Shown one piece after another: positions 14,655 to 41,144 of a DNA stretch of 64,000 nucleotides. Origin of the DNA: Bacteroidota bacterium (lineage in GTDB: Bacteria > Bacteroidota > Bacteroidia > J057 > JADKCL01); the NCBI GenBank assembly GCA_016718825.1, contig JADKCL010000004.1:91277-155276 (forward strand), written 5' to 3'. A program made the position numbers and the translations under genes. Position 1 is the first letter of the stretch. Each line of letters begins with the position of its first letter. The notes below the pieces were generated by a model. It was not told where the DNA came from. It made no database searches and saw only the letters and a program-made list of their open reading frames with translations.

Positions 14655-15015
14655 GCCTTCCCATTCGACAAAAAATCCAGCGTTTCATTCACGAGATGAA
14701 AGCTCCGAAAACGGTGGCGACAATGCCATTGTAGCAATGGGCTATTCTCAAAGCCGTGCACTGAAGAATTTTGCCGGGTGGTTCAGCCCTTCGGTGCGTT
14801 GAATGAGATGGCTCTTGCAATTCGCACTTTCAGAGAAATCTGAGCCTTGACATAAGGCATCCAAGCCTCAACGTCGTTGGCACATTTGCAAACCTGAATA
14901 AGTATTCACGCCTCGTCGACGTTGGCTTGTCTTGGAAAGGGGCAACATTAGTTGGCATGGCTTCAAACTTTGAATTAAATTTGGCCTTCGAATAATATTG
15001 ATAATCATGTTAGTT

Positions 15016-16212
15016 ATGAGAAAAAAGCTACTTCTACTTTCACTTTTTGCTTCAATGATTGGCGGTGGCCTCATTGCCCAGTCAGGTCGTATTGCAAAGG
15101 CAAACATTGGGATGAATGGATCTTCTGTCGGTTCTGTGGCAGAAACCCCTGAAGGCATCGTCTGCGATACGGTTGCCTTTGGCTACCCCGTTGACGATAC
15201 CTTATTGATTTATACTTCCAGCGGTTGGGGCTACGTTGGTGGCCACAATGACTATGGGGATATGAGTAAAGCAGAGCGTGTTGTGAACGTGCAGGGCTAC
15301 ACTGAGGTCTATGGCGCTCGCTTCTCCTTTGGAGCTGCAACTGCTGCGGACAGTAACAGCAAGATCATTGCCCATATTTGGCCAGAGGTCTCTGGTCAAC
15401 CAGGTGCCCCTCTCAACTCTTTGGATATCAGAATTCAGGACATCATTGCGCAGCAAGGTGAAATTGAGGTGAGGTTTCCAAGCCCAGTTTCTGTGAGTGG
15501 ACCATTTTATGTAGGGTTCTCGATCACGTATGTGACAGGTGATACCGTGGGTCTCCTATCCAATGAAGATGGAAAGACCATTCCAGGCACTGCTTGGGAA
15601 CAATGGAGTGACAGTAGCTGGCACCCTTACAGCGAGGTCGGCACAGGTTGGGGCGTGAACCTGACCACTACAATTTATCCATTGGTTTACTCAGGTGTAT
15701 TTCCCGTTACAATCACACCTTCGTCCAGCGTCGTACCCTCAGGAACACCAGTTCAGCTAACGGCAACTGGCGGTACCACCTACACATGGTATCCTGCAAC
15801 AGGTTTGAGCTGCAACAATTGCCCTAACCCCACCGCAACCGTCACGGATACCACCACTTATACCGCAGTTGCAACGCTTACCGGCTTCAATTGCGTTTCT
15901 TCGGCTTATGCAACGATTTACACCACTGTTGTGGTATCTGTTGATGACAACCTTTTTGAAGGTGCAGTAAGCGTATTCCCCAATCCAAATGCTGGCCGCT
16001 TTGCTGTGGTTTTCAATCAAGCAGTAGCGACCGACCTGGAAATTGGATTGTACAATCAACTTGGACAGCGTGTGTATTTTGAGTCGCTCACCGATTTTGC
16101 GGGCGAATACAACAAGACTTTTGACTGGACTGATGTCGCGAAAGGCCTGTACACACTTCGGATCTCTGATGCACAGAACAATCAGTTTGTTTCCAAGCTG
16201 ATCGTGGAATAA
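15016..16212 (+). CDS. secreted T9SS type-A sorting domain protein with Ig-like module
   Basis: Signal peptide; WYPATGLSCNNCPNPTA module; C-terminal VFPNPNAG...LYNQLGQ...GLYTLRI...SKLIVE. Confidence 0.85.
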   Translation: MRKKLLLLSLFASMIGGGLIAQSGRIAKANIGMNGSSVGSVAETPEGIVCDTVAFGYPVDDTLLIYTSSGWGYVGGHNDYGDMSKAERVVNVQGYTEVYGARFSFGAATAADSNSKIIAHIWPEVSGQPGAPLNSLDIRIQDIIAQQGEIEVRFPSPVSVSGPFYVGFSITYVTGDTVGLLSNEDGKTIPGTAWEQWSDSSWHPYSEVGTGWGVNLTTTIYPLVYSGVFPVTITPSSSVVPSGTPVQLTATGGTTYTWYPATGLSCNNCPNPTATVTDTTTYTAVATLTGFNCVSSAYATIYTTVVVSVDDNLFEGAVSVFPNPNAGRFAVVFNQAVATDLEIGLYNQLGQRVYFESLTDFAGEYNKTFDWTDVAKGLYTLRISDAQNNQFVSKLIVE

Positions 16213-16236: not shown

Positions 16237-16275
16237 CAAAGGTCATTCCGATAGACGGAATGACCTTTGTTTTTG
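16237..16275 (+). terminator. rho-independent terminator
   Basis: Perfect 14-bp stem CAAAGGTCATTCCG/CGGAATGACCTTTG, 5-nt loop, followed by a T-run. Confidence 0.9.
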
Positions 16276-27319: not shown

Positions 27320-28330
27320 ATGGAAAGCGAAGAACAGAACATCATCATTTACAATACTGCCGACGGCAAGGCTGCAGTTGCTTTGTATGCCCGCGACGGT
27401 AGTGCTTGGATGAGTCAAGCGCAACTCGCAGAACTTTTTGACACCTCTAAGCAAAACATTGGCCAACACATCGCTAATGTACTGGATGATAAAGAGTTAA
27501 ATTCAAATTCAGTTGTAAAGAATTACTTTACAACTGCCTCTGACGGCAAGCAGTACGAAGTCACCTTCTACTCCCTCGACATGATCCTGGCGATCGGATT
27601 CCGGGTTCGAAGCAAACGCGGCACTCAGTTTCGCATCTGGGCCAACAACCACTTGCGGGAATACTTGGTCAAGGGCTTTGTGATGGACGATGAGCGGCTG
27701 AAGAATCCGAATGGCCGTTTTGACTATTTTGATGAGTTGTTGGAGCGCATCCGCGAAATCCGGGCATCGGAAAAGCGGTTTTATCAGAAGGTGCGGGATT
27801 TGTTTGCATTGAGCAGCGACTATGACCAAAGCGATAAGGCGACCCAAATGTTCTTTGCGGAGACCCAAAACAAGCTCCTCTATGCCGTCACAGGACAGAC
27901 AGCGGCCGAAGTCATTGTCTCACGCGCCAACGCGAGCCTCCCCAACATGGGTTTGACCTCTTGGAAAGGCAACGTCGTGCGCAAGCAAGACATCATCGTC
28001 GCCAAAAATTATCTCAATGCCGACGAACTCGATACCCTGAACCGATTGGTCGTGCTCTTCCTTGAAAGCGCCGAGCTCAGGGTGAAAAATCGTCAAGACA
28101 TCACGATGCGCTTCTGGCGGGACAATGTCGATCGGCTTCTAGAATTTCAAGACAAGCAAGTCCTGCAAGGCGTCGGACAAATCAGCCACGGCATGATGGA
28201 GGAGCAAGTACGCGAAGTTTATGCAGCGTTTGATCAGCAGCGCAAGGCCGCCGAAGCAGCTGCCGCGGATTTGTTTGATTTGGAGGAGTTGAAGGAGCTG
28301 GAGGAGGAGGTTGGGAAACGGAATGGGTGA
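27320..28330 (+). CDS. virulence RhuM family DNA-binding protein
   Basis: WMSQAQLAELF, YSLDMILAIGFRVRSKRGTQFRIWA, GFVMDDERLK, IRASEKRFYQKV, PNMGLTSW. Confidence 0.93.
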   Translation: MESEEQNIIIYNTADGKAAVALYARDGSAWMSQAQLAELFDTSKQNIGQHIANVLDDKELNSNSVVKNYFTTASDGKQYEVTFYSLDMILAIGFRVRSKRGTQFRIWANNHLREYLVKGFVMDDERLKNPNGRFDYFDELLERIREIRASEKRFYQKVRDLFALSSDYDQSDKATQMFFAETQNKLLYAVTGQTAAEVIVSRANASLPNMGLTSWKGNVVRKQDIIVAKNYLNADELDTLNRLVVLFLESAELRVKNRQDITMRFWRDNVDRLLEFQDKQVLQGVGQISHGMMEEQVREVYAAFDQQRKAAEAAAADLFDLEELKELEEEVGKRNG

Positions 28331-28430
28331 GTTGGCAACGTCCTTTAACTAACCTGCAACAAACCGATTCCTAAACATTTGCAACCGAGACCACCAATAC
28401 CCTATCTTCGCCGCTCACCAATTCCAGTAG

Positions 28431-29570
28431 ATGCTTCCTTTCATCCAAGACATCATCAGCCGCTTTGGCGGTCGCTACCCGGGCAGCACTGCCGAAAGAG
28501 ACGCCCAAGCCTACACTGCGGAGTATCTGAAAAACTACTGCGACAAGGTGGAGGTTGAGGAGTTTCAGGCGCCTTTGGAATCCCATTTCGGGTCGATGAA
28601 GATCTTTGTGACGGTGTATTTTTTGGTGCTGATCCTGCTGAAAGTCAATGTCTATGCAGCTGGTTTGCTCGGAATTTTGAATACGGTCCTGTTTCTGGGG
28701 CATTTTGTGAGCTACCGGCATTGGCTGGATTTTTTGTGGCGGAAACAGGCGTCTTGGAACGTCATCGGCGACATCGAACCCACGGGTGAAGTGCGGGACA
28801 CGCTGATCATCGCCGGCCATATCGACAGCGTCCGCGAATTTCAGTGGTGGTACCGCTTCAAGCAGCGTGGCATCGAAATGACCCTGTTTGGCGGGTTTGC
28901 GCTGACATTCTTGGGCGTCTATGCGCTGCTGAGCATGGTCATCACAGCAAATTGGTGGAGTTACGGATGGTGGATTTTTGTGGTGATGGCGCCCTTGCAG
29001 CTGATTTGGTACAAATTTTTTGGAGATAGGGTCGTCGATGGCGCGATCGACAACCTCACGGGCGTGGCGCTCTCCGTCGAAATGGCCAAGGTCTTTTCGG
29101 CGCGCAGGCTCAAGCATACACGTTTGCGCGTGATCAGCTTCGGATCCGAGGAGGCGTGTTTGCGCGGGTCACATGCCTACGCACGGGCGCACAAGCAACA
29201 ATTGCTGGACGAAAAGGCATTTCTCTTTAACCTCGATTCGATCAAGGACCCAGAGCACTTGACGATTTGCATCAGCGAAATCAGCACGTTTGTTTACTAC
29301 AAAAAGGAACACATCGCGCTGGTGCAAAAGGCCTTTGACGATGCAGAAGTGCCCGCACTCAAGTTGCCGATCACGGTCGGCGCTTCGGATGGCTCAGCCT
29401 TCCATATGAACGGCTTGCCGGCGATCACGGTGATCGGCCTCAATTCGGGACGCTTGGACCCGACCTACCATACACGCCTCGACGTCGCGGCAAACATCAA
29501 TCCGCAAGCGCTGGAGTCCATGAAAGAGGTGCTGATCCGGTTTGTGGAGAATTGGGATGGGCGGGTTTGA
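28431..29570 (+). CDS. M28 family membrane metallopeptidase
   Basis: AGHIDS, GAIDNLTG, GSEEACLRGS, NLDSI, YHTRLD; TM segments. Confidence 0.88.
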   Translation: MLPFIQDIISRFGGRYPGSTAERDAQAYTAEYLKNYCDKVEVEEFQAPLESHFGSMKIFVTVYFLVLILLKVNVYAAGLLGILNTVLFLGHFVSYRHWLDFLWRKQASWNVIGDIEPTGEVRDTLIIAGHIDSVREFQWWYRFKQRGIEMTLFGGFALTFLGVYALLSMVITANWWSYGWWIFVVMAPLQLIWYKFFGDRVVDGAIDNLTGVALSVEMAKVFSARRLKHTRLRVISFGSEEACLRGSHAYARAHKQQLLDEKAFLFNLDSIKDPEHLTICISEISTFVYYKKEHIALVQKAFDDAEVPALKLPITVGASDGSAFHMNGLPAITVIGLNSGRLDPTYHTRLDVAANINPQALESMKEVLIRFVENWDGRV

Positions 29571-30094
29571 GGTGGACTGCCAGTCGACTTATGAGCAATC
29601 AACATTGGCGCTCCAAGAGAATTATCAAAAATCGTAGCTTCGCTCACGACCGGAAGGTAAATCCCAAACAGATTCTGCAGACCGCTTACATACCTTCTTC
29701 GGATAACATCTGTCTCAATGTTGTGCCCACCATTGCGCACTCTTTCGGCGACACGGTCAATGGCCAATTGAACGCTGTCCAACCAAAAAAACAACAAAGT
29801 CACGACGTACCCTTTCGCCTTGGCTTCCTCCACGGTCGTGCGGTAGCTTTTCGTTGCGAGGGTGGTCTCAAAAGCAAAGGTTTCGCCGCGCTCCAGAAGT
29901 TCGTCGATGCGCCTGAGCATGATCCTGCCAGCTTCAAAAGCAACCTTTTCCGGCTGAAAGGGCGACAAGCCGCGGGCTATTTCGTCGGCATTGACAAACT
30001 CTTTGCAGTTCAAAATCTCGGGCAAAATGGTAAAGGATGCCGTCGTTTTTCCAGCTCCATTGCAACCTGCGATGATAAATAGGCGCTTGACCAT
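29465..30094 (-). CDS. zeta-toxin-like P-loop ATPase (AAA_33), C-terminus probably truncated
   Basis: AGCNGAGKTT, FVNADEIARGLSPF, FETTLAT, RVRNGGHNI, FDNS; final ~35 codons are antisense to the M28 gene. Confidence 0.8.
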   Translation of the reverse strand: MVKRLFIIAGCNGAGKTTASFTILPEILNCKEFVNADEIARGLSPFQPEKVAFEAGRIMLRRIDELLERGETFAFETTLATKSYRTTVEEAKAKGYVVTLLFFWLDSVQLAIDRVAERVRNGGHNIETDVIRRRYVSGLQNLFGIYLPVVSEATIFDNSLGAPMLIAHKSTGSPPQTRPSQFSTNRISTSFMDSSACGLMFAATSRRVW

Positions 30095-30173
30095 CGATCA
30101 AAGATAATCCATTTCAACGGAAATCATCCATTCGAAGTGGACCAGAAAAGACGCGCTTGTCCAATCGTCTCCT

Positions 30174-30839
30174 TTACCCCTGCTTCCCGTGGATCATCCT
30201 TGAAACTAGACCATTGTACTTGGTCATGTCGGCACGTAGAACCCCAAAAAGGTGTACTACGATGTAGGCGTACATTCCCCATTGGCCGAGTTCGTGGATT
30301 TGTTTGATCGGGCGGTGGTAGGTGTCCAACAATTCCACATCATGCTCAAACGCAAGGCCCAATCCTGTTGCTGCCATCACGAAAATCAACAGGTAAAAGA
30401 CCAAATACCCACGCTTGACCCAGATGTAATGCAGGCGATCCCGTTTTTGGACATCCGATGTTGGGGAAAGCTGCAAAGCACGCTTGATCTTGTTACGCAT
30501 TTTTTCCTCCTTCGAGACGACCACTTCGATCAACAAACGGCTGAATAACAGGAAATTAATTCCATAGCCGATCCAAGTATGGAGCACCCAGAGCTTTTCG
30601 GGGAAGTAGTGCGCGATGCCGCGTGCTTGTTTTTCGCTGAGTTCGACGCCGCGGTTGAGGGCCTCCTCCATGACCGCCGGCGCATTGGCACGGGTATCAA
30701 AAACGTATTCGGCGAGCATCACCAAGACGATCGTGCTGATGAGCAAAAGGGCAAATAGCCAGTGCCAGAGGCGGATCAGGGCTGGATGGCGTTCATTGAA
30801 CAGGGCCACGCTGCCTTGCGTTGTCGCGGAATTCTCCAT
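30174..30839 (-). CDS. cytochrome b/b6 domain (Ni-hydrogenase b-type-like) membrane protein
   Basis: RLWHW, WVLHTWIGY, MAATGL, IHEL...VVHLFGV...SRMIHG. Confidence 0.85.
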   Translation of the reverse strand: MENSATTQGSVALFNERHPALIRLWHWLFALLLISTIVLVMLAEYVFDTRANAPAVMEEALNRGVELSEKQARGIAHYFPEKLWVLHTWIGYGINFLLFSRLLIEVVVSKEEKMRNKIKRALQLSPTSDVQKRDRLHYIWVKRGYLVFYLLIFVMAATGLGLAFEHDVELLDTYHRPIKQIHELGQWGMYAYIVVHLFGVLRADMTKYNGLVSRMIHGKQG

Positions 30840-31049
30840 ATCTCCAAACTAATAGCCTCAACCGCCGCATTCTCCATTGGCAGCCCGGCTGATGTACATT
30901 TTGCTGCCGATTTCGGGAAAGGAGACGAAAATTCCTAATGCGATGCCACGAATTGTCAACCACAGGCGTTTGGATGCCCATCCAATTTGGCTTCACACTC
31001 CCCACTGCGAACAAGATTCGGCCCAAAATTCCGGAGATCCTTGCCTTCT

Positions 31050-31922
31050 CTACCGCAAATAACCATTGATCGTGGCCAAATTGGGCGCGACGTGGGTACT
31101 GGAAACGACACTGCCGGCAGCGACGAAAATGGCTTGCTCGAGGTGGCTGTTGCGCGCCGCCTCGCCCCGGAAAAGGCTGAATCCTTCGAATACATTGATC
31201 CCATTCACCCGCAGGAAGGAGCCAAATCCGCCTGAGGAACAGTAAGATGTAATCACCAAGGTCTTGCCGACGGGCACTGTGTAAGTTGCGCCCACGAGAT
31301 TGACGGAAACCGGAGTCACCTGCTTGTCGACTAGGTAGCCATTGAAATTGGTAGTGGTCTTGCCGCTGATCACGTCGCCCGGCCCCGCGAGCAATGGACG
31401 CAGAAAAGCCCCCATCGCGTCTTGGTCGCCACGATTCGTGTAACCAATCATCATCGTGATGGCGTTGATTTCGAGTGAGTTGGTCGTATTGCCGACATTG
31501 TTGTGGACGTTAGTGATGTAGAGGTTTTTGCCGACGGGCACGGTGTAGGGAAAAGAGGTGCCGGCAAGCGTGATTGGCGTGATGGTAACATGGTCGTCGG
31601 GATGGTACCAATCCGGGCCGCCGCTTCCCCCGCCACCGGGTGCCGGTCCCCAAGTGGCATTGCCCAGCAAAACCGTATTGGGATCCATTGAAAATTCGAA
31701 GCGGCGAAGGGTTCCCAATGGGTCAGCAATCACCAAGGCGCTATCCGGTCCTGCCAACGAATCGGAGCGGATCCAACCGGCAACATGCAACTTGGTGAAT
31801 GGGTTGCTGCGGCCGATACCGACGTTTTGCGCTGACAGCGAAGCAAAGGCCAAACATCCAATGCTCAAAATCGACAAAACCACCTTACCATTCCGAAACC
31901 GGATTCCAAATAGCTCCAACAT
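31050..31922 (-). CDS. secreted protein with NVGIG tail-fibre-like N-module and a duplicated YTVPVGK domain
   Basis: SAQNVGIGRSNPFTKLHVAG; two YTVPVGK(N/T)L.IT...(L/I)...N.I units. Confidence 0.7.
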   Translation of the reverse strand: MLELFGIRFRNGKVVLSILSIGCLAFASLSAQNVGIGRSNPFTKLHVAGWIRSDSLAGPDSALVIADPLGTLRRFEFSMDPNTVLLGNATWGPAPGGGGSGGPDWYHPDDHVTITPITLAGTSFPYTVPVGKNLYITNVHNNVGNTTNSLEINAITMMIGYTNRGDQDAMGAFLRPLLAGPGDVISGKTTTNFNGYLVDKQVTPVSVNLVGATYTVPVGKTLVITSYCSSGGFGSFLRVNGINVFEGFSLFRGEAARNSHLEQAIFVAAGSVVSSTHVAPNLATINGYLR

Positions 31923-32226
31923 ACCTACACGTGCGAAAATGTAATTCAGGAACCAAGTTAGCGATTTCAGGTGATTGCAACTTCATTGGATTAAGAATCG
32001 GGGTTAGCGATGAATCCGACGAAAACCACCTGGCAACCACTTGAGGACGCAATCCAATGACAAGTATCTCCTGCGAAGTCCCATTTGAGCCAATTTGGAG
32101 GTGGCACGAAAATTCGCGATGCTTGCATACTGACGCCCAAGCTTAAATGACCAATGCAGGTGCATGTCATGATAGGCGCGAGAAGGTCCACATTCGAATT
32201 CGTTCACATTAACCATTTTGAATCCC

Positions 32227-33321
32227 ATGAGCTTCTTCAAAAAATTATTCGGCAAAAAAGAGCAGCCCATTCGCAGCTATGCAGATTTCTGGGCTTGGTT
32301 TCAGGAACATGCGCCGAACTTTCAAAGTGTTGTCAAGCGAATGGGAGATATTCAGAGGGACTTTTTCAGCCACGTTTCCCCAAAATTGGGCGAGTTGCAT
32401 GAGGGATTTTACCTGTTGACGGGTATGCAAGACCCGGAGACAGTGGAATTGGTCTTTTCGGCGGAAGGGAATTTGCGGAATTTCGTTTTTGTCGAAGAAC
32501 TCGTTGCTGCAGCACCTCCGATCCCAGGATGGACCTTCACAGCTCACAAACCTGCCTTCGACAGCACCACCTTTGGCGTCGAAATGGAGGGCATCCAATT
32601 TGACCACAAAACGTTGCATTTCTATCCGATCGAGGATTCAGCGTTCCCGGATTTGATTCAAATCGCGGTCGTACATCGCGATTTGACAGCCGAAAACCGC
32701 CCTGTGATCACCAACGGCTGCTTCGTATTTCTAGACAACTACCTTGGGGACCTGAGGGTCGTCACCGAAATCGATCAGGTTTTCATCGTAGGAAAGGGGG
32801 ATGCAGCCGGCGAATTGATGACCATGGACAAACTTGGCCCCTACCTCACGTGGCGGCAAGCTGAATTCGTTGAAAAATACGAGGGCGAAAGACAGAATAC
32901 CGAGCATGGCAACTACGCCATCATGGAAGCAACGCTGCAAAACGGGAAAGGGCTCATTGCAACGATCAACCAAGATCTGCTGCAATGGGACCGAAAAGCC
33001 TCGCATCCTTGGATGGTGATCGTGGAAATCGGCTATCCCGCTGACGGCGATCACGGCATGCCCGACCAATCAACAGCCGATTCGCTGAATACCATTGAAG
33101 ACAAAATCATCGCCCAACTCCCTGACCATGAAGGCTATCTCAACATTGGGCGGCAAACTTCCGAAAACCTCCGATCCATCTTTATGGCCTGCCGGGATTT
33201 CCGGAAACCGTCTAAAGTGATGGAGGCGATTGAAAAGGAATACAAGGGCAGTTTTCAGATTGAATTTGAGATCTTCAAGGACAAATACTGGCGAAGTGTA
33301 GAGCGGTTTGCCAAGCCGTAG
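32227..33321 (+). CDS. DUF695 domain-containing protein
   Basis: MSFFKKLF...DFWAWF, FSAEGN, W.FTAHKP; C-terminal NIGRQT, DKYW. Confidence 0.75.
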   Translation: MSFFKKLFGKKEQPIRSYADFWAWFQEHAPNFQSVVKRMGDIQRDFFSHVSPKLGELHEGFYLLTGMQDPETVELVFSAEGNLRNFVFVEELVAAAPPIPGWTFTAHKPAFDSTTFGVEMEGIQFDHKTLHFYPIEDSAFPDLIQIAVVHRDLTAENRPVITNGCFVFLDNYLGDLRVVTEIDQVFIVGKGDAAGELMTMDKLGPYLTWRQAEFVEKYEGERQNTEHGNYAIMEATLQNGKGLIATINQDLLQWDRKASHPWMVIVEIGYPADGDHGMPDQSTADSLNTIEDKIIAQLPDHEGYLNIGRQTSENLRSIFMACRDFRKPSKVMEAIEKEYKGSFQIEFEIFKDKYWRSVERFAKP

Positions 33322-33402
33322 CCGAATTGACACCGCTTGATTCTACAGCTGAAAGATAGCTCGGAGGCACCATTTCGCTGATTCTTCCAGTCGATCGGCC
33401 AT

Positions 33403-34080
33403 TCAATTCTTGAAAACTTTGTAAACTGATTGACTACCCGCAGTACCAATTTTGATCCAATACATGCCTGCCGGAAAAGACCGAATATCAACTGAAGCGC
33501 CGGCATTCAAGGTGGTGTAATAGCAAACTTGTCCCAAAGCATTGGTGAGTGTTAGCTCCAATCTTCCGACTGATTTGCGCGAAATCACCACAAATTCGTC
33601 CACCACGGGGTTAGGGGCAATGGAAAAGCCGTTAGAGGGTAAACCTTCATTTGCGATGCTAGCCAAGTTCACAACCTCGAAATTCAAAGTCACGCTGTTG
33701 GAATCTACCGGAACGCAAACGGTGTCATTGGAAGAAATGGTTCCCAAGTAATTCACTGTATAAAATCCTCCCTGCAACGGTCCAAGCATTGTTGTATCCA
33801 AAAACGTCCGTGGAACGGTCAGCATCCCATCCGCAAAACAGCCATTCAATTGGATCAAATTTCCTTGCAAAGAGAAACTGTATGAAATTTCTTGACCGTA
33901 GCCAGGAGTCGTCGTTTGTGTCACGATCCTCACCGAATCACTTGTGGTAGGCTGAGTGGGAATGATCTCGATTGGGGAAATGTATGGGCAGCAATTCGTT
34001 TGCGCATTGAACGAACCAACAATTGCTACCAAAACGAGGCAGGTGAGAAGAATCTTGCGGATGGTTTCGGGATTGATCAT
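33403..34080 (-). CDS. small T9SS type-A sorting domain protein
   Basis: Signal peptide; IAPNPVVD...NALGQ...PAGMYWIKI...YKVFKN. Confidence 0.8.
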   Translation of the reverse strand: MINPETIRKILLTCLVLVAIVGSFNAQTNCCPYISPIEIIPTQPTTSDSVRIVTQTTTPGYGQEISYSFSLQGNLIQLNGCFADGMLTVPRTFLDTTMLGPLQGGFYTVNYLGTISSNDTVCVPVDSNSVTLNFEVVNLASIANEGLPSNGFSIAPNPVVDEFVVISRKSVGRLELTLTNALGQVCYYTTLNAGASVDIRSFPAGMYWIKIGTAGSQSVYKVFKN

Positions 34081-34127
34081 CAGGAATTATGATTACGTTT
34101 CAATGCAAGCCTTAAGCTATTCATTTT

Positions 34128-34646
34128 TCAGATTTCTTGCAACTTGATTGCACTGCGGTAGATCTTCTGAATGCTCCCCTTTTCCTCCCGCGCGCAAATC
34201 GCCTCGAACGCAGGCAAAAGATCTGCATTGTGCGGCGTTTTAATCTTGAAAATCTCGCCCAAGGCAAAGGCTGCACTCCATCGCACGACGGTTCCTTCGT
34301 GTTCGGTATTGGAAAGCAAGTTGCCGATGGCTTCCTCCAAATGGCCCGGAAAAAGGTAGGCTATGTTTCCAATCACCCTGGCCGATTCGCATTTCACGCG
34401 TGGTGCCTTGGCTTTCAATGCATTGGAAACAAATTGAAGGCAGTCCAACGTAGCCAATGCTGGATTTTGTTTTGTCGCGTATTCCAAAGCTTCGATACAA
34501 GTGGCTTTCAAAGGATCCTTTGCCTTCCCTGCGAACAACAGCAAATCTGCCACCGATAGGCTTTGGTTCAGCAACGCCGTACTGAGCGCGTTGGTCTTTT
34601 CCTTGGGCTTTAACCCCTTGTCGTTGAGCAACTCTCCGATGTTCAT
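34128..34646 (-). CDS. HEAT repeat protein
   Basis: PRVKCESARVIGNIA, GTVVRWSAAFALGEI. Confidence 0.75.
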   Translation of the reverse strand: MNIGELLNDKGLKPKEKTNALSTALLNQSLSVADLLLFAGKAKDPLKATCIEALEYATKQNPALATLDCLQFVSNALKAKAPRVKCESARVIGNIAYLFPGHLEEAIGNLLSNTEHEGTVVRWSAAFALGEIFKIKTPHNADLLPAFEAICAREEKGSIQKIYRSAIKLQEI

Positions 34647-35293
34647 TTCCCTGTTTTCCTTGCGATCAGAATTAAATCCACATCCCCATCCGGCCCTGCT
34701 GCGCGAACCCGACTTTCGTAGAGTAAATCGAATCCGCAAGCCTTGAGCTGCGCTGTCAAATAGCCGGCTTCGTGAAAATGCATAAAAATTTCATCGCCTT
34801 GGCTGCCTTTGCGAATTCCCGATTTTGCATAGTCGTCTTCCATGGTGCTGATGTAGAGGACGCCACCCGGTGCGAGTTTGGTTGCACTATCTTGAATGAA
34901 ACGCAGCGCCTCTTCCTTGGAAATGTACGGAAAGAAAAATGCCGCGACAATCGCATCCAACTGCTCCGGAACTTGCAAGATGGCCCGACCGTCCAGAAGC
35001 TCAAATTGCGCGGTCGGATTGTTGGCTTGGGCGAGGGCCAACATATTCGGAGATAGATCAGTGCCCAAAATCTGCAAATCCGGGCGCTTTTGCAGCAAAT
35101 ATTGGGTAACATTCCCCGGGCCGCATGCGACCTCGAGAACTTTTGCAGCCTTGACCGATATCGCGGCAAGCAAAACATCCAAACTGTCGTGGTAAGCGCT
35201 GATGTCCATGAACCGCGACTGATAGCCTTCGGCGTATTTGTCAAAGATGCTGGCAGCGAATTCGGAGTGATCCATGGATTCCGGATGTTTCAT
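34643..35293 (-). CDS. class I SAM-dependent methyltransferase
   Basis: VLEVACGPGN, GTDLSPNML, LAPGGVLYIS. Confidence 0.9.
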   Translation of the reverse strand: MKHPESMDHSEFAASIFDKYAEGYQSRFMDISAYHDSLDVLLAAISVKAAKVLEVACGPGNVTQYLLQKRPDLQILGTDLSPNMLALAQANNPTAQFELLDGRAILQVPEQLDAIVAAFFFPYISKEEALRFIQDSATKLAPGGVLYISTMEDDYAKSGIRKGSQGDEIFMHFHEAGYLTAQLKACGFDLLYESRVRAAGPDGDVDLILIARKTGK

Positions 35294-35297
35294 GGGC

Positions 35298-35855
35298 TCA
35301 GGCGATAAAACGTTGATATTCTTGAATCTTCAAGGCCAATCGATTCGCCAAGTAGACATTTCCATCCTTCAAAGCGGCATGAATCAACTTTGCCTCCTCC
35401 AAATAGGCCCGTTTCTTCTCATTGCTCCAATAAAACGGTGGCGCGTACAAATTGCAGATACGGTCGGCCATTTTGACTGCCCAGATTTCGTGGGGTTGCT
35501 GCCGAATGCGGGCAAGACTGTCTTGCATCTTCTCGTCCTTGTCGGCAATCGCAGGACTTTTGGTCAAGGCAAGCACCCCTTCGGCAACGGCAAGGCCAAA
35601 TTTCGCTTGAATTTCCTCGAAAGTGATTCCGGTATCTTCCAAGCTATCGTGCAAAATGGCGCATGAAAGGGCCAACTCGGCGTTCATATTCGCCGTCTGA
35701 TCCAAGGCCGCCATCACCTCAAACACCACACTCCCGATGTGATTGATATATTCAATCTGCTGTCCCTTCGCCGGACCGCCATACTTTTGGCCGTCGTGGA
35801 GTTCGGTGGCGAGCTGCCAGATATCTTGAAGTGTATCGATGGACCAATTTTTCAT
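35298..35855 (-). CDS. HD domain protein, small alarmone hydrolase / MESH1-like
   Basis: H..Q, YINH, AILHDSLEDT, GV.ALTK, VKMADRICNL; no synthetase domain. Confidence 0.82.
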   Translation of the reverse strand: MKNWSIDTLQDIWQLATELHDGQKYGGPAKGQQIEYINHIGSVVFEVMAALDQTANMNAELALSCAILHDSLEDTGITFEEIQAKFGLAVAEGVLALTKSPAIADKDEKMQDSLARIRQQPHEIWAVKMADRICNLYAPPFYWSNEKKRAYLEEAKLIHAALKDGNVYLANRLALKIQEYQRFIA

Positions 35856-35889
35856 GTGCTTGCGGCTTTTGTCTTCTTCGAATCAGGCT

Positions 35890-36273
35890 TCAATTTTTCC
35901 GTTTGGGCTTCTTGACGACCAATGCCTCGTCTTCCATGATGCGGTGCAAGACGATCCGACGTACAAGTTCCAACGGCAGCGGCTTGTCAAGCGGAAACTG
36001 AACGGCACCTTTGGACCATTTGAAATCCTTGAATTCGTGCTGAAACGCAGCGATTCCGGTCCCCGAGGGATAAAATCCGATATGGCCTTTGTAGCCTGCA
36101 AAATAGACCAAAACGCGTTTCATTTTGAAGGCCGGCATCTGGTAACTGATGCATTCGACGGCCAAGGGAGCTGTTTCGCGAATCACCGCCCGGAGTTGTT
36201 GAAGCAATGCCTGCGTCTCCGCCGGAAATTGGGCGATGTATTGATCGATGTTTTTAAAGGCAACGGGATTCAT
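35890..36273 (-). CDS. DUF1801 / YdhG-like domain protein
   Basis: IDQYIAQFP, ISYQMPAF, HIGFYP, KGAVQFPLDKPLP. Confidence 0.9.
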   Translation of the reverse strand: MNPVAFKNIDQYIAQFPAETQALLQQLRAVIRETAPLAVECISYQMPAFKMKRVLVYFAGYKGHIGFYPSGTGIAAFQHEFKDFKWSKGAVQFPLDKPLPLELVRRIVLHRIMEDEALVVKKPKRKN

Positions 36274-36402
36274 GCGCTTTTGGATTGGACAAGGAAGGGA
36301 AATGCATCCTTTTGCCGAAATTAATCATTTTGCGTTTGAAGAGGAACGGTGTTTCACGACAGTTTCCGAGGGGCTTTGCGAATTTCCGATTATCTTTGCC
36401 GA

Positions 36403-37041
36403 ATGGATTCTCGCCTTCCAATTCGCAGGTTCGGGCTTGGCAAATTGCTTTTGCTCAACATCTTGTTGCTGCTTGCTTCGCGGGTTTCTGCCCAATCGGA
36501 GGATCCGCTGGTGGAGCGCTTTTCGCTGACGCTGGACGATGGCCGCGTGTTGCTCAACTGGGTCACGCGCCCGGGCACGACCTGCGACGGCGTGGACGTA
36601 CTGCGCGCGACCGACAGCATTCATTTTGAGCTGATCCACCACATTCCAGGCATTTGCGGCGGCCCCAATGATGCGTTTTCGTATTCCTTCCTAGATGAGC
36701 ATCCCATCGCCAATCATACGAATTACTACCGCATCGGCTTTGACCGCTTGGGAGAATCCACGATTCGGTCCATCGATGTGGTGACGTTGGATGCGACTGG
36801 ATTTCAGGTTCGCCCCAACCCTGTGACGGATGTTTCACGGCTGTATTTTGCAAATGAAAACCGCGAAGTCTGCTCCCTGAGTCTGATCGATATGGGCGGA
36901 ATTGTCCAAGGCGAATGGCAAACCTCGCAAGATTTTTTTGTGGTGGACGGCACGGACTTGTTGCCGCAGCTGTACGCCTTCCGCATCCAAAACACAGAGG
37001 GCCAAGTGATTGCGAAGGGTAGATTGTTGGTACAGAAATGA
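36403..37041 (+). CDS. secreted protein with probable T9SS CTD
   Basis: Signal peptide; LLNW...YSFLD.HP...NYYRI Ig/Fn3-like module; VRPNPVTD...YAFRI...GRLLVQK. Confidence 0.7.
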   Translation: MDSRLPIRRFGLGKLLLLNILLLLASRVSAQSEDPLVERFSLTLDDGRVLLNWVTRPGTTCDGVDVLRATDSIHFELIHHIPGICGGPNDAFSYSFLDEHPIANHTNYYRIGFDRLGESTIRSIDVVTLDATGFQVRPNPVTDVSRLYFANENREVCSLSLIDMGGIVQGEWQTSQDFFVVDGTDLLPQLYAFRIQNTEGQVIAKGRLLVQK

Positions 37042-37083
37042 CCCTTTGCCGTGTCCATTCTCAAAAGACCTGATTTTCAACCC

Positions 37084-37266
37084 ATGAGAATCCCCCCCAT
37101 CGACACCGAAGAAGAATACGAAGCCGCCCTCCTGCGGCTCGCTGAATTGTTGGAAGACCTCGACGCAGACTCCGAGGATGAGGACGAGGAGCGGGAGGCC
37201 TTGTTGGAGGCGATTGAGGCGTATGAGGATGAACTTTTACCAAAGCAACAATTGAAGTCCACCTAA
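37084..37266 (+). CDS. small acidic protein resembling the N-terminal domain of HigA antitoxins
   Basis: IDTEEEYEAALLRLAELL...EREALLEAIEAYED; no HTH domain, no toxin. Confidence 0.55.
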   Translation: MRIPPIDTEEEYEAALLRLAELLEDLDADSEDEDEEREALLEAIEAYEDELLPKQQLKST

Positions 37267-37277
37267 ATTCAAAATCC

Positions 37278-37819
37278 ATGCCCCGATACATCGCCCTCCT
37301 CCGCGGGATCAACGTCAGCGGTCAGAAAATCATCAAAATGGTCGACTTGAAGGCCATGTTTGAAGCGGCGAATTGCACGTCCGTCGTAACCTATATTCAA
37401 AGCGGCAATGTCGTTTTTGAACATGCTGAAGCGGATGCTGCTGAACTGCGACGGCATTTGGAGGTTCACCTGAAGGCATCGCTCGGGTATGCTGTGCCTA
37501 CGCTTCTGCGCACGCACGGGCACTCGCGGCGATTGTGTCCAAAAACCCATTCGACGATCAACTTCCGGAATTTGGCAAGCGGATGTATGTCTGTTTCCTT
37601 GAAAATGCTCCCGATACCACGGCCATTGCCGCCATTGCGCCTTACACCAATCCTGAGGAACAACTGCAGGTCCATGGCTCAGAGGCCTTTGTGTACTATG
37701 CCGGCGGCTTGGGCAAGGCAAAATTGACGAATGCGATCATTGAGCGGAGGCTGGGCATGGCCACAATGCGCAACTGGAACACGGTCAATACCTTGTTGGA
37801 GATGTCCAAGCCCAATTGA
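37278..37819 (+). CDS. DUF1697 domain protein, split by a probable 1-nt deletion
   Basis: YIALLRGINVSG, TYIQSGNVVF in one frame; ALAAIVSKNPF...TMRNWNTVNTL in the next; break at GGG 37518-20. Confidence 0.85.
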
Positions 37820-37827
37820 GACGAGAT

Positions 37828-38262
37828 ATGGCCTTTGAAGATGATCAAGATTTCAGAAGATTTCTCAGCAAATTCGAACCTAACGTGCAAGAAATTGCCT
37901 TGGGAATGCGTGAATTTGTCTGGCGACGCTATCCCGAAAGCAATGAACTGATTTACGACAAAAAGAATGGGCTTTCAGTTGGATGGGGATTTACGGACAA
38001 GGCAGGCGACATTTTTGTGAGTTTTGCCTGCTATTCCAAGCATGTGAACTTCGGGTTTCATCATGGGAACCTGCTTGCTGATCCTCAAAAAATGCTGTCG
38101 GGTAGCGGCAGCCAATACCGGCATATCAAGGTGTCGCGTTGGGCAGAGTTTCCATCTGCTGCAATGGAGGGCTTCGCGCAAGCTGCTTGGCTCAATGTTC
38201 TTGGAATGCTCAAACCGACGGCAAAACTGATTCAAGGCGTCACGATGGTGAAATCGAGCTGA
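37828..38262 (+). CDS. DUF1801-like domain protein
   Basis: NELIYD, HVNFGF.HG..L.DPQKML.GSG.QYRHIKV. Confidence 0.75.
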   Translation: MAFEDDQDFRRFLSKFEPNVQEIALGMREFVWRRYPESNELIYDKKNGLSVGWGFTDKAGDIFVSFACYSKHVNFGFHHGNLLADPQKMLSGSGSQYRHIKVSRWAEFPSAAMEGFAQAAWLNVLGMLKPTAKLIQGVTMVKSS

Positions 38263-38348
38263 AACATCCGGCGCAGAAATGAGTTTTCCATGCTGGCGAT
38301 TCCGTAACTTAGTAATGCCGGATTTGTCATTCTGCCGATTCTGATCGT

Positions 38349-39443
38349 ATGAAAGGTTACCGTTTCTCCGAATACATCGCCCCTGAAAGCACGAAGACCA
38401 CCTTCGACAAGCTGAAGGGCATCTTTTTGCAGATTCTTGTGCACACCAACGGCGATGTGGATGAGGCACTGAACTGGATGAATCAACTCGACCGGAAGTA
38501 CCATCTGACGAATGATGCCTACGGTATGGGCGACTTCATCGAAGACCTTCGCAACCAAGGTTTTATCCGCGACAACGAGGAAGGAAAATTTGACCTGACG
38601 GCAAAGTCGGAGAAGACCATCCGGCAAAATTCGCTGGAGGAAATCTTCGGGAAGCTGAAAAAAGCCCGTCGCGGTGGCCACCGCAGTCCGCAGCATGGTT
38701 TGGGCGAAGAAGCAAGTGCCGACCACCGTCCCTACGAATTCGGAGACAGTTTGGAGCAGATTGCGATGACCGATTCGCTCCGCAATGCGCAGATCAACCA
38801 TGGTCCCGACAGCAATCGCTTGACTGAAAACGACTTGGAAGTCCGCGAAAACGAATACACAACAGCTTGCTCCACAGTGCTGATGATCGATATCAGCCAC
38901 TCCATGATTTTGTATGGCGAGGACCGCATCACGCCGGCAAAAAAGACTGCGATGGCCTTGGCGGAGCTCATTACCACGCGTTACCCCAAAGACACGCTCG
39001 ACATCATCGTCTTCGGCAACGACGCCTGGCAGATCGAAATCAAGGACCTCCCCTACTTGCAGGTCGGCCCCTACCATACCAATACCGTGGCAGGATTGGA
39101 GCTCGCCATGGACCTGCTCAGGCGGCGCAAAACGCCCAACAAGCAGATCTTCATGATCACCGACGGCAAGCCAACCTGCATCAAGGAAGGCATCAAATAC
39201 TACAAAAATTCATGGGGGCTTGACCGCAAGATCATCAACAAGACGCTCACTTTAGGCGCACAATGCCGCAAATTGAAAATCCCGGTCACGACTTTCATGA
39301 TCGCCAAGGACCAATGGCTACAGGAATTTGTGCAGGAATTTACCAAAGTCAATGCAGGCCGGGCGTTTTACAGTGGATTGAATGGCCTCGGGGAGTTTGT
39401 GTTTGAGGACTATCAGAAGAATCGCCGGAAGACGGTAAGGTAG
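38349..39443 (+). CDS. von Willebrand factor type A domain protein (partner of Mg-chelatase-like AAA ATPase)
   Basis: MIDISHSMILYGEDRITPAKK MIDAS, YHTNTVAGL, MITDGKPT. Confidence 0.9.
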   Translation: MKGYRFSEYIAPESTKTTFDKLKGIFLQILVHTNGDVDEALNWMNQLDRKYHLTNDAYGMGDFIEDLRNQGFIRDNEEGKFDLTAKSEKTIRQNSLEEIFGKLKKARRGGHRSPQHGLGEEASADHRPYEFGDSLEQIAMTDSLRNAQINHGPDSNRLTENDLEVRENEYTTACSTVLMIDISHSMILYGEDRITPAKKTAMALAELITTRYPKDTLDIIVFGNDAWQIEIKDLPYLQVGPYHTNTVAGLELAMDLLRRRKTPNKQIFMITDGKPTCIKEGIKYYKNSWGLDRKIINKTLTLGAQCRKLKIPVTTFMIAKDQWLQEFVQEFTKVNAGRAFYSGLNGLGEFVFEDYQKNRRKTVR

Positions 39444-39483
39444 GAAACAAAAAAAATATCCCTCTCATTATCACCCAATTCAC

Positions 39484-40077
39484 ATGAATCATCACAACAA
39501 CGCAAAGTTCCTCGGAAGCGCTGCCCTCCTCGCCACCCTCCTCTTATTCTCAGCCTGCAACAATTGCCCTGACTACCCGATCGAGCCCGATGTGTTGCGG
39601 TTCCTGCCTTACCAAGCGAATCAGACCGTTGTATTTGAAGATGCAACACAAAATCTGGATACACTTACCGTATCTTCATTCAGCCGCGGATTTGATACGG
39701 AAACTTGCGCAGACCACCCCAGCCAAGACTTTGAATATGAGCGCATACATATCACACTGGGGACAATTGCCGGCGATTCGACCTTCGTGCTGCTTGACAA
39801 TACAACTTGGGAAAAATTGTCGATTCGGTTTCAGGACAGCGATTTGGGGCCTGCCTTTGAACCACTTTCCGGCACGCTCGACCATCCCATCGGTACCAAC
39901 TATGAGACGTTTACCTTTCAGGCAAGCGAGGTCATAAATGGCACAACGTATCAAAATGTTTCGACCTACACCAAGACGTATTACAACCCTTCCCATATAG
40001 AAACGGTAAAGCTTGCCATTGACCATGGAATTGTTGCCTTTCAAACTGATTTGGGTGTTTGGTGGTATCTTCATTGA
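39484..40077 (+). CDS. hypothetical lipoprotein
   Basis: Lipobox FSAC; LPYQANQTVVF; GIVAF C-terminus. Confidence 0.7.
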   Translation: MNHHNNAKFLGSAALLATLLLFSACNNCPDYPIEPDVLRFLPYQANQTVVFEDATQNLDTLTVSSFSRGFDTETCADHPSQDFEYERIHITLGTIAGDSTFVLLDNTTWEKLSIRFQDSDLGPAFEPLSGTLDHPIGTNYETFTFQASEVINGTTYQNVSTYTKTYYNPSHIETVKLAIDHGIVAFQTDLGVWWYLH

Positions 40078-40096
40078 TTGAATAGCACAACATTTT

Positions 40097-40161
40097 TGCA
40101 AAAACGGCGATTCCAGCGTTTCTGATCATATTGCCGACGTCGGCAAAATGATCAGAAACGC
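40097..40161. repeat. non-coding copy of an internal dinD segment containing a 46-bp near-perfect palindrome
   Basis: 40097-129 matches 40449-481 at 31/33 nt; 40116-161 has 23-bp arms with one mismatch. Confidence 0.9.
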
Positions 40162-40289
40162 ATTTTGAGGCAATCAAGGGCATGCAAAATCGCGAGCACC
40201 ATCACCAACACACTTAGCCGCACGGAAATTTTATTGGGATTTTGCGAATTATTATTGCAACAAATTAGCAATTCACTATTTTTGCAACC

Positions 40290-41144
40290 ATGAAACAAGA
40301 ACTTATCACCGAACTCTTCGAAAAATTCGAAAAAGCCTGCTATTCCTACAATGGACTAGAGTGCTGGAGCGCCCGTGAGCTCATGGAAATTTTTGAATAC
40401 ACCAAGTGGGAAAACTTCGCCAAGGTGGTTGAAAAAGCGAAACTCTCCTGCGAAAACGCCGATTCCAGCGTTTCTGATCATTTTCTTGATGTCAGGAAGA
40501 TGATCCAGACTGGCAAAGGGGCGGAAAGGGAGATTCAAGACATCGCACTCACACGCTATGCCTGCTACCTGATCGCTCAAAATGGTGACCCTGCAAAAAA
40601 TCCGGTTGCCTTTGCCCAGACTTACTTTGCTGTCCAGACCCGGAAGCAAGAAATGGTGGAACAGCGGCTTCTGAACGTCGCGCGGGTGACGGCGAGAGAA
40701 AAGCTTTCCAAAACGGAAACCAAACTTTCGAAAATTCTCTATGACCGCGGCGTCGACCACCATGGGTTTGCAAGAATCCGCTCCCAAGGCGACCAAGCAC
40801 TGTTTGGCGGAAACTCCACCGGAGAAATGAAAAAGCAGTTAAAAATCCCGGAAAACAGACCCTTGGCTGATTTCCTACCAACATTGATCATCAAAGCCAA
40901 GGACTTTGCAACTGAGCTCACGAGCCACAATGTTGTCGACAAGAACTTGCATGGTGAAGCGCCCATCACCCATGAGCATGTCGACAACAACCGCGCAGTG
41001 CGCAAAATGCTGAAAGAACGTGGCGTGAAACCAGAGGAGTTGCCGCCTTCGGAAGATGTCAAAAAGGTGCAGCGACAACTTGCCAATGAGGAAAAGGCCA
41101 TTGCTGCTGGAGCGAAAAAGCCAACCGGAAATCCGCAACAATAG
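40290..41144 (+). CDS. dinD: DNA damage-inducible protein D (Bro-N-like N-terminus)
   Basis: ECWSARELM, LTRYACYLIAQNGDP.K..VAFAQTYFAVQTRKQE, RPLADFLPT..IKAKDFATE, EHVDNN. Confidence 0.93.
   Translation: MKQELITELFEKFEKACYSYNGLECWSARELMEIFEYTKWENFAKVVEKAKLSCENADSSVSDHFLDVRKMIQTGKGAEREIQDIALTRYACYLIAQNGDPAKNPVAFAQTYFAVQTRKQEMVEQRLLNVARVTAREKLSKTETKLSKILYDRGVDHHGFARIRSQGDQALFGGNSTGEMKKQLKIPENRPLADFLPTLIIKAKDFATELTSHNVVDKNLHGEAPITHEHVDNNRAVRKMLKERGVKPEELPPSEDVKKVQRQLANEEKAIAAGAKKPTGNPQQ

Follow-up and report, generated by a model that had tools for sequence, protein, structure and literature searches.

The 64,000-nucleotide stretch of a Bacteroidota chromosome analysed here (the window; assembly GCA_016718825.1, contig JADKCL010000004.1, forward-strand positions 91,277 to 155,276) carries two single genes, rhuM and dinD, each with a short palindrome in its coding sequence. 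Sequence comparisons indicate that these are local copies of family-wide DNA palindromes that lie ~190 nt into almost every gene of the two families, in bacteria, archaea and phages, and that the complementarity of their arms is upheld by paired changes overriding both synonymous and amino-acid choice. On the same evidence the palindrome appears to be maintained by selection, to belong to each cassette, to act in cis near the gene start, to be prone to fold-back and deletion, and to be independent of neighbouring genes. A full-text literature search found no description of rhuM or dinD coding palindromes, and this is a real DNA element, apparently undescribed in the literature. The features concerned, in window positions, are as follows.

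27320-28330, + strand: rhuM-family gene, 336 aa (PF13310, E 2.3e-110; PADLOC PDC-S05, E 2e-147)
27510-27536, no strand: rhuM coding palindrome CAGTTGTAAAG-aatta-CTTTACAACTG, 11-bp perfect arms, 5-nt loop, codons S64-A73
40097-40129, + strand: left flank of the orphan palindrome, a 31/33 nt match to dinD 40449-40481
40116-40161, no strand: orphan dinD-type palindrome upstream of dinD, 46 nt, 23-nt arms, 22/23 pairs, core of the A-D/V-G type
40290-41144, + strand: dinD gene, 284 aa, Bro-N N-domain (NF008573, E 4e-103; PADLOC PDC-S13; predicted DdrC-like fold)
40476-40505, no strand: dinD internal palindrome GATCATTTTCTTGA-tg-TCAGGAAGATGATC, 30 nt, codons D63-I72

The gene families named in the initial annotation of this DNA were confirmed by profile search: the RhuM protein scored 368 bits against PF13310 over residues 64-310 (cut-off 33.7 bits), and the DinD protein 344.7 bits against the NF008573 equivalog over residues 2-274 (cut-off 242 bits). 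PADLOC assigns both genes to single-gene candidate defence families (rhuM to PDC-S05, dinD to PDC-S13). The palindromes occupy +187 to +216 in dinD and +191 to +217 in rhuM; the 13 pairs of the former comprise 11 Watson-Crick and 2 G·T pairs, and a bulged extension spans 40473-40510.

To define conservation, dinD homologues were taken from 60 relatives, 80 species genomes of many phyla including archaea, and 80 viral contigs, and rhuM homologues from relatives, 80 metagenome contigs and 80 viral contigs, with gene calls in these loci based on open reading frames (ORFs). The palindrome was kept at the same codons in ~93 of 98 distinct cellular dinD sequences, in 33 of 35 distinct phage variants, and in about 100 of 104-108 rhuM sequences (35-41 distinct phage variants per family were compared). 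Across the 98 dinD sequences, 91.2% of cells were paired versus 82.5% in shuffles, double-change cells numbered 138 versus 52, and covariation was 0.310 versus 0.151 (0/500 shuffles as high); these shuffles ignore phylogeny, but controls in which the partner was slid by 1-3 columns do not, and they gave only 0.02-0.135. Similarly, all 12 pairs were altered on both sides among 104 rhuM sequences, with 290 double-change cells versus 77 in shuffles and a covariation of 0.642 versus 0.224 (0/500 as high; slid controls ≤0.147).

The paired changes reach both silent and coding positions. In dinD, codon pairs alter jointly to give F-L-D/V-R-K, F-A-D/V-G-K, F-A-G/V-S-K, F-V-D/V-N-K, F-P-D/V-R-K, F-R-E/V-T-K and F-V-V/D-Y-K. 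Even 'invariant' residues co-change: H64 became C together with M71 to T (TGT/ACA) in three loci (L300, L303, L304), and K70 became E with F65 written as TTC in another (L116). The DinD motif DHF...KM(V/I) is itself reverse-complement symmetric at the DNA level (GAYCATTTT/AAAATGRTC), and the synonymous third base of D63 follows the first base of the V/I72 codon (C-G 53, T-A 42, 3 unpaired, with 2 T·G and 0 C·A), so that synonymous sites co-vary with amino-acid-changing sites across the arms. The dinD gene of E. coli K-12 carries GACCATTTCGAGGA-ga-TCCTCGATATGGTC at the same codons (13/14 pairs), and its upstream region, where a LexA box would mark an SOS gene, contains CTGTATATAAATACAG.

The initial annotation had reported coding palindromes of 27-30 nt and had called for enrichment over codon-shuffled controls. 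The palindromes are indeed there and non-random, for rhuM by codon shuffle and folding and for dinD by comparison with homologues. When synonymous codons were shuffled with the protein fixed, the rhuM score was reached in 1/400 shuffles, and both DUF1016/YhcG genes of the genome reached their own score in 0/400. The enrichment thus held for these genes but failed for the window dinD alone, whose score was reached in 54/400. As single-stranded DNA the rhuM palindrome folded at -10.2 kcal/mol (z -7.75, 0/200 shuffles), the orphan at -22.8 kcal/mol (z -9.9) and the dinD internal palindrome at -6.4 kcal/mol (z -1.6). On its own letters the window dinD palindrome would not be judged beyond chance; only the comparison with homologues shows it to be real. 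Palindromes were present in families that had been named (rhuM, dinD and both DUF1016/YhcG genes), and the accompanying claim that core genes have none comparable holds for the window as scanned: seven neighbouring core or unclassified genes showed no palindrome excess over codon shuffles, and in the whole 64 kb a scan for perfect inverted repeats (arms ≥9 nt, loops ≤8 nt) gave only three. A terminator reading was rejected, since the rhuM stem is rich in A+T and lacks a T run after it; an intrinsic-terminator scan called none of the three window palindromes.

We compared mispairs to distinguish DNA from RNA. At dinD stem positions G·T was found 46 times and A·C 42 times (Watson-Crick 1116, other 70), and at rhuM stem positions 11 and 6 times; phage copies gave 14 versus 14 (dinD) and 7 versus 16 (rhuM), and the pooled counts were 60 versus 56 in dinD and 18 versus 22 in rhuM. 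Real RNA helices tolerate G·U. Because G·T was no commoner than A·C, the constraint appears to be on strict complementarity, which points to a DNA palindrome, either as a dyad in the duplex or as a hairpin formed by one or the other strand. A sense-strand RNA helix was rejected, as no G·U preference was seen in dinD, rhuM or phage copies.

The location of the function is suggested by free-standing copies of the palindrome (orphans). A dinD-type orphan was present at 14 of ~100 cellular dinD loci, 25-260 nt 5' of the start or 30-90 nt 3' of the stop, and usually only the 26-30 bp palindrome was homologous to dinD. These orphans are specific to dinD neighbourhoods, with 13 in 532 kb around dinD genes versus 0 in 483 kb around rhuM genes. 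In four cellular genes a decayed internal palindrome was accompanied by a perfect upstream one, at -50 (L087), -67 (L026), -75 (L134, where it has grown to 38 bp) and at both -234 and -141 (L119); its sister L005 has a tandem repeat upstream that contains two copies, both decayed, and a phage locus (L293) combines a decayed internal copy with a perfect one at -73, which makes at least five independent cases of decay with a perfect upstream copy. Any strong upstream palindrome was found in 4/8 degenerate dinD genes versus 7/89 intact ones (Fisher p = 0.005), and on the tree the degenerate cases with upstream copies fall into at least four independent lineages. Since an upstream copy is present where the internal one is lost, this compensation pattern favours a role in cis close to the 5' end of dinD. 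The window dinD fits the pattern: its internal copy folds weakly (-6.4 kcal/mol), its upstream copy strongly (-22.8).

The window orphan, overlooked in the initial annotation, lies ~130-175 nt 5' of the dinD start. Its flank shares with the gene a 22-nt exact repeat (40108-40129 = 40460-40481; 0 expected by chance), and beyond the 31/33 match 8 of the next 21 positions differ (hypergeometric p ~0.005). Its 3' arm is prolonged by a stretch that is reverse-complementary to the orphan's 5' flank (AGAAACGC), an extension that is absent from the dinD gene copy and is a fold-back. Such a fold-back, like the outward growth in L134, is the expected product of snap-back or template-switch synthesis at a hairpin, and the two together indicate that the DNA folds at least occasionally. 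The orphans of the present genome (L001) and of an unrelated Chitinophagaceae metagenome-assembled genome (MAG; L110) share the same CATATT/AAAATG A·A mismatch and almost identical cores, with unrelated flanks.

Breakage at the palindrome was also seen. Among truncated dinD copies, one begins at the left edge of the palindrome (L098), one a few codons before it (L030), and one ends just after it (L022), and in L019 the palindrome segment was precisely deleted, causing a frameshift; short relics are recognisable only via the palindrome, so this clustering of breakpoints is partly an ascertainment effect. In a Methanomicrobiales MAG (L124:1380-2520), dinD has an hsdM-like 3' end on one side and a ~60-nt duplicate of this end on the other, just before the next gene, and is bracketed by two different rhuM-type orphans at -41 and +58.

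Template switching between arms could in principle hold them complementary without selection. As a core-gene control we used agmatinase of the same genome, which carries a 12-bp-arm palindrome (TGGCAGCATGGC-atc-GCCATGCTGCCA; 9/400 codon shuffles reach its score). All 12 pairs are formed here, but only 10, 8, 9 and 7 of 12 in four orthologues (57-80% amino-acid identity). Because this palindrome decays in orthologues, template switching alone is insufficient, and a pure template-switch drive was rejected; by this comparison the rhuM and dinD palindromes appear to be under family-specific selection. No partner gene was associated with them: the largest ORFs flanking 80 dinD loci fell into 159 Pfam families, the commonest being HsdM (7), ResIII (5) and HsdS (4), and the 25 commonest included no recombinase, integrase or reverse transcriptase. 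Any trans factor would thus be the gene's own product or universal machinery.

Structure prediction bears on what that product may be. The AlphaFold model of DinD is confident (pLDDT 89) and its best Foldseek match in the PDB is DdrC (E 5e-6, probability 1.0); the RhuM model is weaker (pLDDT 67) and, at that low confidence, also matches DdrC best (E 9e-3, probability 0.97). The entries matched best by the two models are DdrC of Deinococcus radiodurans, 8u0g, 7udi and 7qvb. DdrC is a damage-induced DNA-binding dimer of Deinococcus. The DdrC paper (PMC9303277) calls ddrC one of four Deinococcus-specific genes, and our literature search found no paper treating DdrC and DinD together. PDB sequence searches with DinD and RhuM gave no matches, the likeness to DdrC being undetectable at the sequence level, and hhalign found no sequence homology between DinD and RhuM, which agree only in fold and topology. 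The dinD palindrome codons make up the end of a short helix and strand E65-74 of the hairpin E65-74/E78-87, and RhuM S64-A73 lie on H62-65 and E66-72 in the same order of elements (AlphaFold, pLDDT 67 for the latter). The models thus place both palindromes over the same structural element, the end of a short helix and the first strand of the β-hairpin 'wing' in a DdrC-like winged-helix N-domain, and both proteins are predicted to bind DNA and to share the DdrC fold. Because they share N-domain topology and best PDB match, rhuM and dinD are probably distant relatives with the palindrome at an equivalent structural position rather than unrelated convergent genes, and their description as unrelated in the initial annotation is doubtful.

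In a Crocinitomicaceae locus (L104:1501-3211) rhuM directly follows dinD with a 2-nt overlap. DinD residues 5-127 match the first ~130 positions of a 468-aa PADLOC model of PDC-S05 (PDLC04871) and RhuM matches the remainder, so that the model resembles a DinD-like N-terminal part fused to RhuM. A second, frame-broken rhuM copy lies on another contig of the genome (C61:275-971, - strand), with residues 5-129 and 134-231 matched at 43-56% identity.

The best reading of these results, which we hold as a tentative one, is that the palindrome is a portable DNA site acting in cis and probably bound by the product of the gene that carries it. Each single-gene cassette would own such a site, the putative cognate site, as duplex or extruded hairpin, of its dimeric DdrC-like product, and a gene landing in arbitrary genomic contexts would thereby bring a portable autoregulatory site with it. 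The internal palindrome might act as a roadblock at ~+190 and an upstream one as a promoter-proximal operator. Replication template switching would probably help to hold the arms complementary, keeping non-contacted positions symmetric, and extend copies that are free of coding constraint. As in intragenic operators, the dyad lies near the start, and the substitutes lie upstream at -50 to -235. Autoregulation had been among the mechanisms first suggested for this DNA, and in this form it remains the best candidate. Several points weigh against it. An operator would not need complementarity at the three variable pairs per half-site nor at the outer GAY/RTC pair, and the free covariation of outer and core pairs looks more like the signature of a folded helix, or else needs template switching as an extra assumption. 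DdrC-type proteins are known to bind lesions or structures (PMC9303277) and are not known as sequence-specific repressors. The rhuM loci examined showed no pattern of an upstream copy where the internal one is lost. Within the window the core types differ, A-D/V-G in the orphan and L-D/V-R in the dinD gene. Lastly, many orphan copies look like relics of dead genes, their reading frame being preferentially open.

Phage DNA bears on this reading and on its alternatives. A scan with the pattern CATTTT-N3-GACGTC-N3-AAAATG (18 fixed bases; ~1 chance match estimated in the viral collection) found the dinD-type palindrome in at least 112 viral contigs, a >100-fold enrichment, mostly outside recognisable Bro-N genes. 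Of 80 phage copies checked by tblastn, the N3 parts were exactly complementary in 48, and 6 lay within a dinD-like match; among the at least 112 loci listed, 39 copies stood in an open HF frame of ≥90 aa, 7 of these 39 with a Bro-N match. Copies in frame include one in a Mu-F-like gene and one in a portal gene, where CATTTTGTTGACGTCAACAAAATG (H-F-V-D-V-N-K-M) is read at codon 291 of a 508-aa portal-domain ORF (L480:7483-9006, - strand, viral contig). The H-F...K-M frame was open around 20/25 short phage copies, which suggests that many free-standing copies are gene relics; the enrichment in phage is also what a recognised DNA site would look like.

This enrichment could instead reflect a tiny mobile or copy-pasted element of ~30 bp able to sit in frame, like Rickettsia palindromic elements (RPE) or repetitive extragenic palindromes (REP). 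The excess over the single chance match, the small share of copies with a dinD-like or Bro-N match, the in-frame copies in the portal and Mu-F-like genes, the tandem copies upstream of L119 and L005, a length that is a multiple of three and an HF frame lacking a stop codon would all fit such an element. However, its position is fixed and homologous in >90% of family members, the sequence types are family-specific, neither insertion polymorphism nor target duplication was seen, and no transposase is associated. The host genome holds only two good dinD-type copies and one rhuM-type copy with this arm sequence, so the many copies per genome that define a dispersed repeat of the RPE or REP type are lacking, and we regard mobility as very unlikely. 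A role in breakage and exchange is less improbable, though still unlikely: a DNA hairpin or cruciform would be a breakage and recombination hot spot and an exchange point for single-gene defence cassettes, resembling integron attC without a dedicated integrase. The truncations at the palindrome edge and the precise deletion in L019 would follow from this, as would the window orphan ending in a fold-back at the palindrome centre, the orphans at cassette borders, such as the two flanking dinD inside the duplicated hsdM 3' end in L124, and the many PADLOC PDC-S05 models that are N-terminal fragments of 80-87 aa ending just past the palindrome; one palindrome per cassette is also what a required recombination site would give. 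But no recombinase is linked to the genes, and the palindromes are perfect, have no extrahelical bases and are situated within the gene, not at the end of a cassette. Crossover between different palindromes would give hybrid, mismatched arms, and none were seen, while relics detectable only through the palindrome bias the breakpoint picture.

A functionless palindrome, an ancestral quasi-palindrome perpetuated by arm-to-arm template switching with orphans as the last relics of dead genes, would account for strict complementarity without wobble preference, for orphans that equal or surpass the copies within genes in perfection and have grown outward (to 46 bp in the window and 38 bp in L134), and for the preferentially open frames around free-standing phage copies; for proteobacteria, conservation of non-coding inverted repeats by template switching has been proposed (PMC5941160). 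We find this reading very doubtful. The 12-bp-arm agmatinase palindrome was not maintained in orthologues, window core genes have no excess over codon shuffles, a neutral process does not predict that internal loss is tied to an upstream copy, the same A·A mismatch persists in the L001 and L110 orphans, and conservation is near-universal across domains of life even though residues are dictated. An mRNA hairpin, within the ORF or, when upstream, in the 5' untranslated region (UTR), that controls translation, mRNA decay or autogenous protein binding is rather unlikely. The window dinD segment does fold strongly as RNA (-22 to -28 kcal/mol), the common L-R core (CTT/AGG) yields a U·G pair, a 5' UTR could include the upstream substitutes at -50 to -75, and the palindrome keeps a fixed place with respect to the start codon; against this stand the pooled mispair counts, in which G·U is no commoner than A·C, the orphans kept 3' of genes and in phage DNA in either orientation, and an Rfam search at permissive threshold that returned no matching family, only sub-threshold miRNA-like matches to the orphan.

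The initial annotation had proposed that the hairpins encode variable protein segments, in which either the two arms mutate together or a recombinase acting in trans swaps the cores. Core residues do vary widely among distant homologues (L-D/V-R, A-D/V-G, V-D/V-N, P-D/V-R, R-E/V-T, V-V/D-Y), and the window orphan and gene diverge abruptly beyond their shared flank. Rates were compared in homologue pairs over codons 20-120 of dinD. Divergence of the 12-nt core was 0.00 where the rest of the region had diverged by 0.08-0.15, 0.17 where the rest reached 0.22, and equal at larger distances, and the outer arms evolved at about half the rate of the rest. The rhuM cores behaved in the same way, with one substitution in one pair at the 15% divergence boundary, and dinD genes of the same genus (77% amino-acid identity) have the core of the window dinD. 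Core divergence thus does not exceed that of the gene's remainder, and, but for that one rhuM substitution, cores are identical in pairs below 15% nucleotide divergence; invariance among close relatives had been named beforehand as the outcome that would count against variable segments, and it is what we found. Hypervariability and core swapping were rejected on these rates, and so was a diversity-generating retroelement, there being no reverse transcriptase among the listed families and no core divergence above the gene average. The fold is conserved, and the residues coded by the palindrome belong to one of its β strands rather than to any known variable loop that binds a ligand. No trans-acting recombinase, HUH enzyme or reverse transcriptase was linked to the genes (80 dinD loci, 159 Pfam families). 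At least one trace of template switching is nevertheless present, in the fold-back by which the orphan is extended. We conclude from these comparisons that the palindrome does not appear to be a mechanism for diversifying the protein, and that a variable segment is extremely improbable.

A wider proposal, which we also consider rather unlikely, makes the palindrome the cognate ligand of a superfamily of DdrC-like DNA sensors (DinD/Bro-N, RhuM, probably KilA-N and YhcG) that sense or act on incoming phage DNA, through which the element is scattered, with the copy in the gene itself or just upstream as a self-site setting expression. If so, a self-referential module of gene plus site would be conserved across bacteria, archaea and phages, and the target of each protein would be one sequence type, in the form of a folded hairpin, a cruciform or the symmetric duplex.

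The surroundings of the two genes are those of an ordinary Bacteroidota chromosome, with T9SS-sorted proteins, formiminotransferase-cyclodeaminase, cbb3 oxidase, GldD and RNase E/G as neighbours and with no restriction operon around rhuM and dinD. The 25 commonest of 45 Pfam families in the window include no integrase or reverse transcriptase, consistent with the earlier statement that the window holds no recombinase or reverse transcriptase. A perfect 14-bp-arm hairpin at 16237-16269 (CAAAGGTCATTCCG-ataga-CGGAATGACCTTTG), ~30 nt past the ORF 14998-16209, is probably a terminator. In the 7.7-Mb genome, 291 perfect inverted repeats with arms of ≥10 nt were found versus 39-46 in shuffles, most of which look like terminators or low-complexity tracts. 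Both DUF1016/YhcG genes (C12:65663-66727 and C10:94566-95879, both - strand) carry perfect coding palindromes, CAAATCGTGACGCA-g-TGCGTCACGATTTG and AATTTTGCAGACA-c-TGTCTGCAAAATT, and in the C10 protein the palindrome-coded peptide ILQTVSAKF is present twice, ~10 residues apart. A loop-less palindrome with the core GTAGGGACAGGTCGCGACCTGTCCCTAC and 20-29-bp arms occurs in at least four places (C6:164820, C68:78220, C68:84457, C43:5955) and looks like a REP-like dispersed element. Two related palindromes with 15-16-bp arms, TTTTAAACCCCTCGA..TCGAGGGGTTTAAAA and TTTTAATTCCATCGAATTCGATGGAATTAAAA, stand 110 nt apart at C4:311660-311801. Long alternating poly-C/poly-G tracts in large open frames (C12:96071-96560, C65:66902-67351) may be assembly artefacts or hypermutable tracts.

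RhuM has been described as a passenger of restriction loci (PMC3710099), and few passenger genes are commoner in restriction-modification operons and defence islands than rhuM, dinD/Bro-N and YhcG. For the RhuM and DinD proteins the palindrome offers a concrete handle, each protein's own palindrome being a candidate ligand. A DNA element that dictates amino acids family-wide and across domains is a rare case of a nucleic-acid constraint overriding protein coding, and it carries a warning for annotation, since the conserved protein motifs 'DHF...KMV' and 'SVV...TTA' are partly by-products of DNA symmetry.

Among known systems, intragenic or auxiliary operators such as lac O2 in lacZ, gal OI in galE and the PurR site inside purB codons are similar in being dyad DNA sites in coding sequence, within a few hundred bp of the start, that can act by roadblock or looping under a joint codon constraint. 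They differ in serving single operons with a separately encoded regulator and a conserved sequence, whereas the rhuM and dinD palindromes span whole families, have co-varying arms and have the gene's own product as presumed binder. The centromere site parS lies inside spo0J/parB and is likewise a protein-recognised palindromic site within the gene encoding that protein, but it is one of several dispersed, sequence-conserved sites, is not family-wide at a fixed codon and dictates no co-varying residues. RPE and REP, too, are short palindromic DNA in frame inside ORFs or free between genes, but a genome has them in many dispersed copies at varying insertion sites, whereas a rhuM or dinD gene has a single palindrome, at a homologous position and of a family-specific type. 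Integron attC sites share sequence-variable, structure-conserved inverted repeats on single-gene cassettes that form single-stranded hairpins. They are, however, longer and imperfect, have extrahelical bases, are placed after the ORF and need IntI, none of which applies here: identity with attC was rejected on the perfect or near-perfect arms inside codons 63-73, and no IntI integrase was among the listed families of the window (25 of 45) or of the dinD neighbours (25 of 159). Quasipalindrome correction (PMC5941160, and the Ripley and Lovett models cited there) resembles our case in exact complementarity without wobble preference, joint change of two arms and the fold-back of the orphan, but is a mutational process rather than a function, and it did not preserve the agmatinase coding palindrome. 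Nematomorpha mitochondrial genes contain numerous perfect coding palindromes per genome, up to 284 bp long (PMC6649704), which are similarly inverted repeats with both arms translated; those are long, lineage-specific and set in mitochondrial core genes, whereas here one short palindrome per gene occupies a fixed homologous place in mobile accessory families.

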